Position numbers: made by a program
Assembly (NCBI RefSeq): GCF_003334315.1
Contig: NZ_QOWR01000010.1
DNA from: Escherichia coli
Lineage (GTDB): Bacteria > Pseudomonadota > Gammaproteobacteria > Enterobacterales > Enterobacteriaceae
Direction: 5' to 3' (one strand)
Length of the DNA: 64,000 bases
Shown: positions 57,501-60,500 of the stretch, piece by piece
How the letters are laid out: each line of letters begins with the position of its first letter
How positions within the stretch are numbered: the stretch's first letter is position 1

Positions 57501-60500
57501 GCTTCACGACTCTTCTCCAGAGGGGCAGAATAACCACACCGGAGTGTGGTTATGGTTAATCCCCTTCATATTTCAAGCCACAGATGCGATGACTCGAATT
57601 ATTTTGGGGATACATACTTTATTACTGGGTACTGGTGGTTGTGGTTGTGGTGGTCCCGGTATTAGAACCATCACCGCCACCGGTTGCCGCGAGCGCGACA
57701 CCCACCGCCGAGCTTACGGTGCTGACGCTGGTCGCGGAGGAACTCCCCGCCGAAACCGACGTTGCTGCCGACCCTGCCGCTTCGCCCACCTGTACAGGTG
57801 CAGCCCACGCAGAAGTCGCCGCAAGCGCAGATATGGCAAAAATGCCATACAGAACTTTTTTCATAACAATTTCCCTTCATTGAATGAATGGAGATTTACC
57901 CAAAAACATTTCGGGCGGGATCGAGTATACACAACTAAAGCATGCGAATTACGGCGCGGGGAATTAGCGATGGTGTTTTAGGATAATTGGAATGAATATC
58001 AAATATAAGTTTCAACTTATATTTAAATAACAATAAAAATCATAAACTTAAAATAAAAACAAAAGTAATTAATCTGCGTATTTTCCGAAATAAACAACGA
58101 TTAAAAATCTATTTTAGGATTAACCTCACGGTATGATTTCCGTTAAATCACAGACAAGGGGATTTATCTGATAAAAAAATGCCGACATAACGTCGGCATT
58201 GTTATTAAGGTTATTTAATCAATCGTGCTATGTATTAATTGCCGAATACGATGTACATATCGGCATCGACCTGTAGGCCTGATAAGACGCGACCGCGTCG
58301 CATCAGGCATCGGTTGCCGGATGCGGCGTGAACGCCTTATCCGGCCTACATAGCGGCATCAGGCATGAACGATGATTAACCGCGCCACGCTTTATAGCGG
58401 TTAATCAGACCATTGGTCGAGCTATCGTGGCTGCTGATTTCTTTATCATCTTTCAGCTCTGGCAGAATACGGTTTGCCAGTTGTTTACCCAGCTCCACGC
58501 CCCACTGGTCGAAGGTGAAGATGTTCAGGATCACGCCCTGAGTAAAGATTTTGTGCTCATACAGCGCAATCAACGCCCCCAGGCTGAACGGAGTGATTTC
58601 GCGCAGCAGGATGGAGTTGGTCGGGCGGTTACCTTCGAACACTTTGAACGGCACCACGTAGTCAAGCGTTGCCGGATCTTTACCCTGATCGCGATATTCC
58701 TGCTCAACCACTTCACGGGATTTACCAAACGCCAGCGCTTCGGTCTGGGCGAAGAAGTTAGACAGCAGTTTCTGGTGGTGATCAGAGAGCGGGTTATGGG
58801 TGATAGCCGGGGCGATGAAATCGCACGGTACCATTTTGGTTCCCTGGTGGATCAGCTGGTAGAACGCGTGCTGACCGTTAGTGCCTGGTTCACCCCAGAT
58901 AATCGGGCCAGTCTGGTAATCCACAACGTTACCGTTACGGTCAACATACTTACCGTTGGACTCCATATTGCCCTGCTGGAAGTACGCCGCGAAACGGTGC
59001 ATATACTGGTCATACGGCAGAATCGCTTCAGTTTCCGCACCAAAGAAATTGTTGTACCAGATGCCAATCAGCGCCAGCAGTACAGGCAGGTTTTTCTCGG
59101 CAGGCGTGGTGGAGAAATGCTTGTCCATCGCGTGTGCGCCAGAAAGCAGTTCAACGAAGTTATCAAAGCCGATGGAGAGAACAATCGACAGGCCAATCGC
59201 TGACCACAAAGAGTAACGGCCGCCAACCCAGTCCCAGAACTCGAACATGTTGGCAGTATCAATACCAAACTCGCCAACGGCTTTGGCATTGGTGGAGAGC
59301 GCAGCGAAGTGTTTCGCAACGTGTTTTTCATCACCTGCCGCTTTCAGGAACCAGTCACGCGCGCTATGGGCGTTGGTCATGGTTTCCTGAGTGGTGAAGG
59401 TTTTAGATGCTACCAGGAACAGCGTGGTTTCCGGGTTTACTTTTTTCAGCACTTCAGCGATGTGAGTCCCATCGACGTTAGAAACAAAGTGCATGTTCAG
59501 GTGGTTTTTGTACGGACGCAGTGCTTCGGTCACCATGTATGGGCCGAGGTCAGAACCGCCGATCCCGATGTTCACTACGTCAGTGATTGCTTTGCCGGTA
59601 TAACCTTTCCACTCACCGGAAATAATCGCTTCTGAGAAGGTTTTCATCTTCTCCAGCACCGCGTTGACTTCCGGCATTACGTCTTTGCCATCAACCAAAA
59701 TCGGGGTATTGCTACGGTTACGCAGCGCTACGTGCAGCACGGCGCGGTTTTCAGTGCGGTTGATCTTCTCGCCAGAGAACATCGACTTAATCGCGCCCGC
59801 CAGATCGCACTCTTTCGCCAGATCCTGTAATTTCGCCAGCGTCTCTTCGGTGATGCGGTTTTTGGAGTAATCCACCAGCATCTGATCGTCGAATGTTGCG
59901 GAGAACTTAGAAAAACGATCGCCGTCTTTAGCAAAAAGATCGGCGATCGTAACGTCTTTCATTTCATCGAAGTGTTTCTGTAGTGCCTGCCAGGCAGCGG
60001 TCTGCGTTGGATTGATGTTTTTCATTAGCAATACTCTTCTGATTTTGAGAATTGTGACTTTGGAAGATTGTAGCGCCAGTCACAGAAAAATGTGATGGTT
60101 TTAGTGCCGTTAGCGTAATGTTGAGTGTAAACCCTTAGCGCAGTGAAGCATTTATTAGCTGAACTACTGACCGCCAGGAGTGGATGAAAAATCCGCATGA
60201 CCCCGTCGTTGACAACCGCCCCGCTCACCCTTTATTTATAAATGTACTACCTGCGCTAGCGCAGGCCAGAAGAGGCGCGTTGCCCAAGTAACGGTGTTGG
60301 AGGAGCCAGTCCTGTGATAACACCTGAGGGGGTGCATCGCCGAGGTGATTGAACGGCTGGCCACGTTCATCATCGGCTACAGGGGCTGAATCCCCTGGGT
60401 TGTCACCAGAAGCGTTCGCAGTCGGGCGTTTCGCAAGTGGTGGAGCACTTCTGGGTGAAAATAGTAGCGAAGTATCGCTCTGCGCCCACCCGTCTTCCGC

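Follow-up and report, generated by a model that had tools for sequence, protein, structure and literature searches.

The ecp/mat promoter is activated from a distance by EcpR/MatA, with IHF and H-NS, and the IHF consensus is WATCAANNNNTTR with a flanking dA/dT-rich element. MatA is a partner of RcsB. The sites bound by RcsA together with RcsB reportedly follow the RcsAB consensus TaAGaatatTCctA, said to go back to Wehland & Bernhard 2000. Published RcsB patterns include TN(G/A)GAN4TC(T/C)NA and TN(G/A)GAN4(A/C)CTNA (Huesa et al.). The auxiliary regulators of RcsB, rcsA included, have all been reported to be repressed by H-NS, with RcsB partners acting as anti-silencers. Long H-NS tracts (>1 kb) are associated with silencing; the motifs of H-NS are short and consist of A/T only, and short regions of H-NS upstream of operons behave as ordinary repressors. 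The yjbEFGH operon, a stress-induced polysaccharide operon of E. coli, is induced by envelope or osmotic stress, and papers citing Ferrieres 2007 attribute its activation to the RcsA-RcsB heterodimer. Expression compendia show yjbE varying together with rcsA and the wza-wca genes. The Reg-Seq preprint names TCCTAAAA as an RcsB-type half-site and counts yjbE among the scored candidates for the motif of an osmotic activator, a motif that includes the RcsB half-site TCCTAAAAT.

We examined the DNA upstream of yjbE within a 64-kb window of E. coli sequence (the whole stretch analyzed), which is reversed in orientation relative to K-12. In the window annotation, yjbG and yjbF lie between yjbH and yjbE, and the spacer between the pgi stop codon and the yjbE ATG (57865-58375) measures 511 bp at 38% GC (Table 1). 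The ~100-135 bp adjoining pgi (58241-58375) consist of REP elements, with REP-like sequence reaching ~58375, and with these positions occupied the REPs lie ~375-410 bp from yjbE, closer than the ~500 bp given in the original prediction. The REP elements are missing in most other genera, where the spacer is ~365 bp. The terminator hairpin of pgi is kept in species in which pgi is adjacent. In strain S1-CAM-01-C, otherwise identical, an IS1 lies within this terminator (duplication 58175-58184); the insertion was rejected as a pointer to an AT-rich target, given its position outside the AT core. A 32-aa ORF in the AT tract (57935-58033, minus strand) was dismissed because it falls in non-conserved spacer.

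Table 1. Coordinates of genes and of observed or predicted features in and around the pgi-yjbE spacer, ordered by position in the window.
Feature	Position	Strand	Remarks
yjbH	54039-56135	-	
yjbE, first gene of yjbEFGH	57622-57864	-	CDS, 80 aa
Predicted 5' leader	57865-57917	-	90-100% conserved across the family (conservation profile)
Predicted yjbE -10, TATACT	57924-57929	-	Within invariant GTTGTGTATACTCGA; no -35 match
Proximal box, TTCCAATTATCCTA	57979-57992	-	Followed by AAAA to 57976; contains RcsB half-site TCCTAAAA
AT-richest core	57996-58075	.	12.5% GC; within the middle-to-proximal box spacer
Sigma-70-like hexamers, ATAACA-16-TAAAAT	58027-58054	+	Point away from yjbE; RNA would start ~58061
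IHF-type site, TAAGTTTATGATT (predicted)	58038-58050	-	12/13 to YAANNNNTTGATW; followed by T-rich run
Rfam STnc430 (RF02053) match	58061-58210	+	77.7 bits vs gathering 47; opposite to the pgi/yjbE strand
Middle box, inverted	58075-58088	-	Family consensus TTTTAGGATTATACGGA; E. coli TCGGAAAATACGCA, degenerate
Distal RcsAB-type box, TGAGGTTAATCCTA	58115-58128	-	Followed by AAAAT to 58111; 251-264 bp 5' of ATG
Box 0	58158-58171	-	E. coli TCAGATAAATCCCC; family consensus TCGGATAATTCCTG; resembles reversed rcsA box TCGGATAATCCTTA
pgi intrinsic terminator	58168-58200	-	Stem AATGCCGAC/GTCGGCATT, then T7 run; terminator scan
REP pair (BIME), just 3' of pgi	58276-58346	.	Rfam naRNA4/REP, 79.5 bits vs gathering 59.5
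pgi	58376-60025	-	
lysC	60550-61899	+	

The very AT-rich stretch predicted upstream of yjbEFGH is real. The sequence quoted for it was found at 57995-58060 on the plus strand, and the lowest-GC windows of the 64 kb at sizes of 50, 100, 150, and 200 bp (0.10, 0.15, 0.187, and 0.235, against a mean of 0.507) all fall in its core. Over 80-150 bp, the tract has 12.5-19% GC, far below average. Almost pure A/T, the description given for 57960-58200, applies to a core of ~80-115 bp and not to the whole 240 bp: GC is 27.4% across 57960-58200, 23% across 57990-58180, and 12.5% across 57996-58075, and outside the core lie the pgi terminator and conserved boxes that bear GC. The AT island as a whole covers only ~200-250 bp, between flanks of 58-68% GC. 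TpA steps occur at 13.9 per 100 bp in the tract, compared with 4.7 for the window, and the minimum 100-bp GC is 0.15 upstream of yjbE, compared with 0.24 for wza and 0.33 for rcsA. The region had also been called curved, a description that curvature prediction did not support: a wedge model of the Bolshoy-Trifonov type gave no unusual bend and placed the tract in the ordinary range. AA/TT dinucleotides in the tract showed no 10-11 bp periodicity beyond shuffles (p ~0.3).

The pgi-yjbE spacer was compared across 72 Enterobacteriaceae species, with anchor positions taken from a MAFFT alignment; these species are related, and the counts below therefore overstate independent support, which we put at some six or more separate indel events. 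The 100-bp GC minimum of the spacer has a median of 0.21 and always lies ~100-150 bp 5' of the yjbE ATG. The spacer between the middle and proximal boxes likewise has a median GC of 0.21 (range 9-30%), compared with 0.48 (range 42-56%) for the yjbE-yjbF spacer and 0.545 for the loci overall. The AT-richness is kept across all 72 species and is therefore no strain quirk. Between the conserved islands, sequence is poorly conserved and AT composition is kept; the islands themselves are the pgi terminator, three to four RcsB/RcsAB-type boxes, the IHF-type site, and a single -10.

The distal box is an upstream match to the pseudo-palindrome expected of an RcsAB-dependent promoter. It agrees with the RcsAB consensus at 10/14 positions, including 6/6 in the core, although this consensus is short and AT-rich and matches to it are cheap in such DNA. 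On the plus strand, the box reads TAGGATTAACCTCA, an exact match to TN(G/A)GAN4(A/C)CTNA, as is the site upstream of rcsA; only nine matches to this pattern occur in the window on both strands. Among the 72 species, the TGAG...ATC columns of the distal box (TGAGnTTwATCC) are conserved at 90-99%, and the proximal box is conserved as well. The half-site TCCTAAAA has three occurrences in the 64-kb window, counting both strands (128 kb searched), two of which lie here in the same orientation, in two boxes of the yjbE upstream region. Both box 0 and the middle box have degenerate copies in E. coli; the copy of box 0 is weak, with 8/14 matches to the RcsAB consensus by our count. The GGA..ATC columns of box 0 are invariant in 30/30 aligned species, and we regard it as a putative Rcs site.

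At the aligned position of the IHF-type site, at least 12/13 consensus positions are matched in 65% of the 72 species and 13/13 in 21% (fifteen species). The IHF consensus is short and AT-rich, so matches come cheaply; at other offsets in the same spacers, however, at least 12/13 was reached in 0.4% and 13/13 in 0%, a background control that argues against chance. Information content at the site peaks exactly at TAA....TGATT, the specified positions. As in an IHF-assisted promoter, the consensus match occupies a helically phased place between the putative activator sites and the predicted promoter. Binding of a nucleoid protein to the AT core, as originally proposed, is plausible in light of this conserved site in its middle.

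Spacing between the elements is quantized. All inter-element intervals across the 72 species take values ~11 bp apart, or one helical turn, with no intermediates. The interval from the distal to the middle box is 40 or 50-51 bp in 72/72 species; that from the middle box to the IHF-type site is 27-29 or 38-39 bp, that from the IHF-type site to the proximal box is 44-45 or 54-58 bp, and that from the proximal box to the -10 is 52-53 or 62-65 bp. The total from the distal box to the -10 is 185-187, 196-200, or 209-211 bp. Seven species carry an inserted gene of 485 aa that separates pgi from the control region, and they retain the boxes and spacing; the control unit therefore belongs to yjbE and not to pgi.

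The hexamer TATACT is present in 72/72 species, ~60 bp 5' of the ATG, and is the sole conserved TANNNT on the yjbE strand. A predicted -10 without a recognizable -35 is as expected for an activator-dependent promoter, and the conditional induction suggested originally agrees with this arrangement and with the literature, in which yjbEFGH is not constitutive and depends on RcsA-RcsB and stress. Transcription of yjbE likely starts at ~57917, ~53 nt 5' of yjbE, which corresponds to ~4,235,853 in MG1655. The promoter was characterized by Ferrieres et al. 2007, whose mapped start and box may differ from those predicted here, and yjbE has no entry in the tables of Kim 2012. This predicted start is close to yjbE, and the AT tract would therefore be upstream regulatory DNA with no long leader. 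We also looked on the yjbE strand for a second or upstream promoter and rejected it, as the consensus scan returned none there and no other TANNNT is conserved. The predicted leader can form two small hairpins, the second over the Shine-Dalgarno sequence AAGGGA (57872-57877); its RNA structure (-13.8 kcal/mol, z = -1.4) was set aside as not significant against shuffles.

Taken with the RcsA-RcsB dependence and stress induction known from the literature, the composition, conserved elements, quantized spacing, and motif matches described above suggest that the AT tract is probably the architectural middle of a ~300-bp phase-locked upstream activating region serving a single weak yjbEFGH promoter. 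From these data, we infer which proteins would bind where, how the DNA would bend, and where transcription would start. Toward yjbE, the order would be the pgi terminator, possibly box 0, the distal RcsAB-type box, and the inverted middle box, followed by ~80 bp of AT-rich, TpA-rich flexible DNA with the central IHF-type site, and then the proximal box, which carries TCCTAAAA and is centered ~68 bp 5' of the predicted start. With the Rcs phosphorelay switched on, RcsB~P and RcsA would occupy the boxes. A DNA-bending protein, most likely IHF, would fold the AT-rich spacer, and the fold would set the distal complexes beside the proximal box and RNA polymerase, turning on an otherwise nearly silent promoter. 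A stronger form of this proposal, which we offer tentatively, is that the yjbEFGH region forms a phase-locked nucleoprotein assembly in which Enterobacteriaceae keep three to four RcsB/RcsAB sites, together with a central IHF-type bend site, in strict helical register, with all tolerated indels being one DNA turn and AT-richness being selected for bendability rather than H-NS silencing. The region might also host an osmotic-stress activator that has the RcsB half-site TCCTAAAAT within its motif.

Several other readings of the AT tract were weighed. The original prediction saw a curved, AT-rich promoter region silenced by H-NS (with Fis or IHF), so that induction would be mainly relief of silencing. 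We consider this rather unlikely as the principal account, though it is compatible with an upstream activating region and not exclusive of it, and H-NS may additionally coat the tract when Rcs is off. The extreme AT content and high TpA density speak for silencing, as do the short, purely A/T motifs of H-NS, the ordinary repression exerted by short upstream H-NS regions, the reported H-NS repression of RcsB auxiliary regulators, and the anti-silencing by RcsB partners. Set against these are the lack of predicted curvature and of A-tract phasing and the confinement of the island to ~200-250 bp between flanks of 58-68% GC. Furthermore, the accessible parts of the literature naming both yjbE and H-NS appear to contain no report of H-NS binding at yjbE. 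Silencing alone would also leave the conserved boxes and the ~11-bp spacing steps unexplained, and these steps also count against the remaining readings. It is improbable that the tract merely reflects the generic AT-richness that mutation bias gives to intergenic DNA around promoters and terminators. Operon-upstream DNA is generally A/T-rich, and the sequence between the boxes is poorly conserved, as this reading would have it; however, nowhere else in the 64 kb do 50-200 bp windows reach so low a GC, 72/72 species keep the tract at 9-30% GC next to a yjbE-yjbF spacer at 42-56%, and the length of the tract is conserved modulo ~11 bp.

Two further readings would make the tract function as RNA. 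We think it very doubtful that it is a long 5' leader with a start just 3' of the distal box. The RcsAB boxes of wza and rcsA lie at -452 and -264 from the ATG, and yjbE has its distal box at -264 too, a placement that favors such a leader; yet no conserved -10-like hexamer occurs on the yjbE strand between the distal box and TATACT, the tract sequence is not conserved, structure is not evident, and the indels occur in steps of one helical turn of DNA. Hardly credible, in our judgment, is an STnc430 sRNA that would start at a promoter in the AT tract, run away from yjbE, and stop at a bidirectional pgi terminator. Its covariance score exceeds the gathering threshold, and the sigma-70-like hexamers would put the start at 58061, where the model begins. 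These hexamers account for the STnc430 prediction without showing use; the scan for sigma-70-like promoters returned one site, where shuffles gave an expectation of 1.9. Behind the family stands a purely computational candidate, listed in its source table as class V with 0 reads in Hfq and control libraries and as "not probed" by Northern blot. RNAalifold on 30 species gave -0.68 kcal/mol, three pairs, and 0 compensatory changes, which is essentially no consensus structure, and when the E. coli sequence is aligned to the model, several of the pairs are non-canonical. The terminator carries its T-run on the pgi strand, opposite to STnc430. The conserved positions coincide with the DNA boxes, and 11-bp spacing steps are a property of DNA and not of RNA. 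STnc430 was therefore rejected as a real sRNA or gene on the grounds of the source table and the absent conserved structure. The family corresponds to orthologous DNA, the Salmonella pgi/yjbE spacer; it describes an RNA with 0 reads, and DNA sites together with the pgi terminator account for the conservation seen in it. The Rfam STnc430 entry thus probably models conserved DNA control elements plus a terminator rather than an RNA, which calls for caution in annotation pipelines.

Read in this way, the odd composition marks the regulatory region of an operon already known to be under Rcs control, and no exotic explanation is needed. A feature of this kind is ordinary and known; the layout is unusually orderly, and, as far as we checked, its phase-locking appears to be undescribed. 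If the proposal is true, yjbE offers a compact model for RcsAB action from a distance. The map of boxes, IHF-type site, single -10, and ~11-bp steps can be used for Rcs dissection or for a PyjbE envelope-stress reporter.

Among known systems, yjbE resembles rcsA and wza. The three genes share AT-rich upstream DNA, membership in the RcsA-RcsB regulon, and co-expression, and their RcsAB-type boxes stand far 5' of the ATG: TAAGGATTATCCGA at -264 for rcsA, TAAAGAAACTCCTAAAA at -452 for wza, and TGAGGTTAATCCTAAAA at -264 for yjbE. yjbE differs from wza and rcsA in having three to four boxes in fixed helical register together with an IHF-type site, and from wza in being without a long JUMPstart-type leader. 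The H-NS-silenced and anti-silenced promoters of rcsA (with DsrA) and bgl (with BglJ-RcsB) share AT-rich upstream DNA, conditional expression, and RcsB-family activators with yjbE, whereas the AT tract of yjbE is short, at ~200-250 bp for its island compared with >1 kb for H-NS silencing tracts, and has no predicted curvature. The ecp/mat promoter is similar in having activator sites, an IHF-type site, and the promoter in line, with face-of-helix dependence, and in its AT-rich DNA, which at both loci could also bind H-NS; at yjbE, IHF binding is a prediction only.

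The coordinates of the AT-rich upstream region in the original prediction coincide exactly with the 511-bp pgi-yjbE spacer, in an E. coli window that is the reverse complement relative to K-12, and the sequence quoted there was found at 57995-58060. G+C was 27% across 57960-58200 and 12.5% across 57996-58075; at each window size examined (50, 100, 150, and 200 bp), the GC minimum of the entire 64 kb falls in this core, confirming that the AT-rich tract is real and extreme. The description "almost pure A/T" held for about 80-115 bp only and failed for the rest of 57960-58200. The REP-to-yjbE distance, put at ~500 bp, measured about 375-410 bp because REP elements (Rfam naRNA4/REP) fill about 100-135 bp adjoining pgi. 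Further AT-rich islands (about 10570-11540, 24480-25350, 33120-33445, and 41770-43100; 100-300 bp windows at 21-30% GC), each larger than the yjbE upstream tract, may represent horizontally gained DNA or regions of H-NS type.

Features of the yjbE region, with spacer elements read on the yjbE strand
Feature	Position	Strand	Sequence or remark
yjbH	54039-56135	-	
yjbG, yjbF			listed between yjbH and yjbE
yjbE	57622-57864	-	ATG at 57864
Conserved leader			53 nt, predicted start to yjbE ATG
Element containing TATACT	TATACT 57929-57924	yjbE strand	GTTGTGTATACTCGA
Proximal box	57992-57976	yjbE strand	TTCCAATTATCCTAAAA; then GC-rich patch
AT core with IHF-type site	site 58050-58038	yjbE strand	TAAGTTTATGATT
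Middle box	58088-58075	yjbE strand	TCGGAAAATACGCA
Distal box	58128-58111	yjbE strand	TGAGGTTAATCCTAAAAT
Conserved block after terminator	58171-58158	yjbE strand	TCAGATAAATCCCC
pgi intrinsic terminator	58200-58168	yjbE strand	
REP pair	58346-58276	yjbE strand	Rfam naRNA4/REP
pgi	58376-60025	-	
lysC		+	listed after pgi
485-aa inserted gene (example)	L048 771-2228	-	

Using YjbF as the query with one genome per species, we obtained 80 loci, and pgi-yjbE synteny was maintained throughout Enterobacteriaceae. Across 72 spacers, minimum 100-bp GC had a median of 0.21 and always lay about 100-150 bp upstream of the yjbE ATG, and GC between the middle and proximal boxes was 9-30% in every species, against 42-56% for the adjacent non-coding yjbE-yjbF spacer and 54.5% for the loci as a whole. 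Conservation was patchy (high in the boxes, -10, and leader, low in the intervening DNA), which together with the uniformly low GC indicates that composition and length are kept in the spacer and sequence is not. In seven species (L014, L048, L051, L052, L055, L060, and L062), an inserted 485-aa gene, divergent from yjbE, separates pgi from the yjbE control region; its sequence alone suggests a sugar isomerase. The insertion leaves the boxes, and the distances between them, intact. Strain S1-CAM-01-C (L002) is 100% identical to the window across 57600-58450 except for an IS1A (L002 2086-2852) within the pgi terminator stem (window 58175-58184; duplication about 9-10 bp, AAAAATGCCG), which splits pgi off from the yjbE control region.

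The boxes are of RcsB/RcsAB type. The distal box matches 10/14 positions, and 6/6 core positions, of the RcsAB consensus, TaAGaatatTCctA (attributed to Wehland & Bernhard 2000), and its complementary strand fits the published RcsB pattern TN(G/A)GAN4(A/C)CTNA exactly. A recent Reg-Seq preprint names the 8-mer TCCTAAAA a canonical RcsB half-site and places yjbE among candidate targets of a putative osmotic activator. With both strands counted together, this 8-mer occurs three times in the 64-kb window, twice in the yjbE upstream region in like orientation. The family consensus of the middle box, TTTTAGGATTATACGGA, is an inverted copy of this half-site; the E. coli copy is degenerate and lacks TAGGA, with TTTCGGAAAAT where other genera have TTTTAGGAT. 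Escherichia and, independently, Kluyvera have lost 11 bp from the interval separating the distal box from the middle box (window 58075-58128). The block after the terminator, family form TCGGATAATTCCTG, resembles the rcsA box reversed and may be a further Rcs site.

At a fixed offset past the middle box, the family consensus TAAC-NNN-TTGATTTTT corresponds to YAANNNNTTGATW, the complement of the IHF consensus, WATCAANNNNTTR, with a dA/dT-rich element next. At this aligned position, 65% of the 72 species scored at least 12/13 and 21% scored 13/13, compared with 0.4% and 0% at all remaining offsets in the same AT-rich spacers. Information content peaked exactly at the specified positions and collapsed at the N positions, and the G of TGAT was kept in 69/72 species within DNA that is otherwise about 80% A/T. 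The AT core probably contains an IHF site.

The hexamer TATACT, conserved in all 72 species, is the sole conserved TANNNT on the yjbE strand; its -35 position had no match, and a consensus promoter scan of that strand found no promoter. We infer an activator-dependent promoter with a predicted start near 57917, which would put the centre of the proximal box near -68, the AT tract at about -79 to -158, and the IHF-type site near -127. The 70 bp preceding the yjbE ATG (57865-57935, -) show 90-100% identity across genera, exceeding yjbE itself. The predicted leader folds a small hairpin over the Shine-Dalgarno sequence, with a fold that is not significant (z = -1.4). A RyhB-dependent change of yjbE mRNA is listed in a ribosome-profiling study.

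Spacing between the elements was restricted to paired values in the 72 species: 40 or 50-51 bp from distal to middle box, 27-29 or 38-39 bp from middle box to IHF site, 44-45 or 54-58 bp from IHF site to proximal box, and 52-53 or 62-65 bp from proximal box to -10, with a total of 185-187, 196-200, or 209-211 bp from distal box to -10. No in-between lengths occurred among the anchor intervals compared, and the shorter classes are spread over separate clades (Escherichia, Kluyvera, the Citrobacter freundii group, Silvania, and others), so several independent one-helical-turn indels, and no other kind, have been tolerated. Judged from these alignments, such a register is the signature expected of proteins bound on set faces of the helix.

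Part of the spacer also matches STnc430 (Rfam RF02053; 58061-58210, +, 77.7 bits), orthologue of a Salmonella candidate from the pgi/yjbE spacer, predicted because of sigma-70-like hexamers at 58027-58054. An sRNA is not supported: the source table places the candidate in class V (predicted only), records 0 reads for it from either the Hfq or the control library, and marks it as not probed; RNAalifold on 30 species found no consensus structure; and the model is best conserved over the terminator, the block that follows it, and the distal box. We take the family to be a model of DNA elements. A sub-threshold isrH match in the yjbE-yjbF spacer (57559-57611, -; 24.9 bits, where the gathering score is 45) is probably chance.

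The original prediction held the tract to be curved, nucleoid-protein-bound, and silenced, with conditional induction of the operon. Conditional induction is established, since the literature describes yjbEFGH as an exopolysaccharide operon activated by RcsA-RcsB, with induction under envelope and osmotic stress, and its expression co-varies with rcsA and wza-wca. Published evolution experiments report that IS1 insertions in yjbF and between yjbE and yjbF (57508-57621) activate Rcs and colanic acid production, and mucoid clones from predator selection are reported with yjbEFGH mutations. Curvature was not borne out: a wedge-model path places the tract within the ordinary range of the window, and AA/TT periodicity at 9.5-11.5 bp was not above shuffles (p about 0.3). 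TpA density is three times average, which favours flexibility and protein-induced bending. Short and flanked by DNA at 58-68% GC, the tract would belong at most to the "short H-NS regions" that Kahramanoglou et al. distinguish as a class, and H-NS participation is possible. A ParB/parS spreading study (PMC6238139 / bioRxiv 10.1101/345066) mentions yjbE with H-NS and IHF and may include occupancy data for this locus.

The best explanation of the AT tract is that it forms the bendable spacer of an upstream region that responds to Rcs, has several phase-locked sites, and probably includes an IHF site. This is an element of a well-known kind, and its ordered architecture is the one feature deserving a bench test. 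The RcsB pattern that fits the distal box also finds the rcsA upstream site TAAGGATTATCCGA, 264 bp from its ATG, and the yjbE distal box lies at equal distance from its own; the wza upstream box TAAAGAAACTCCTAAAA likewise contains the half-site.
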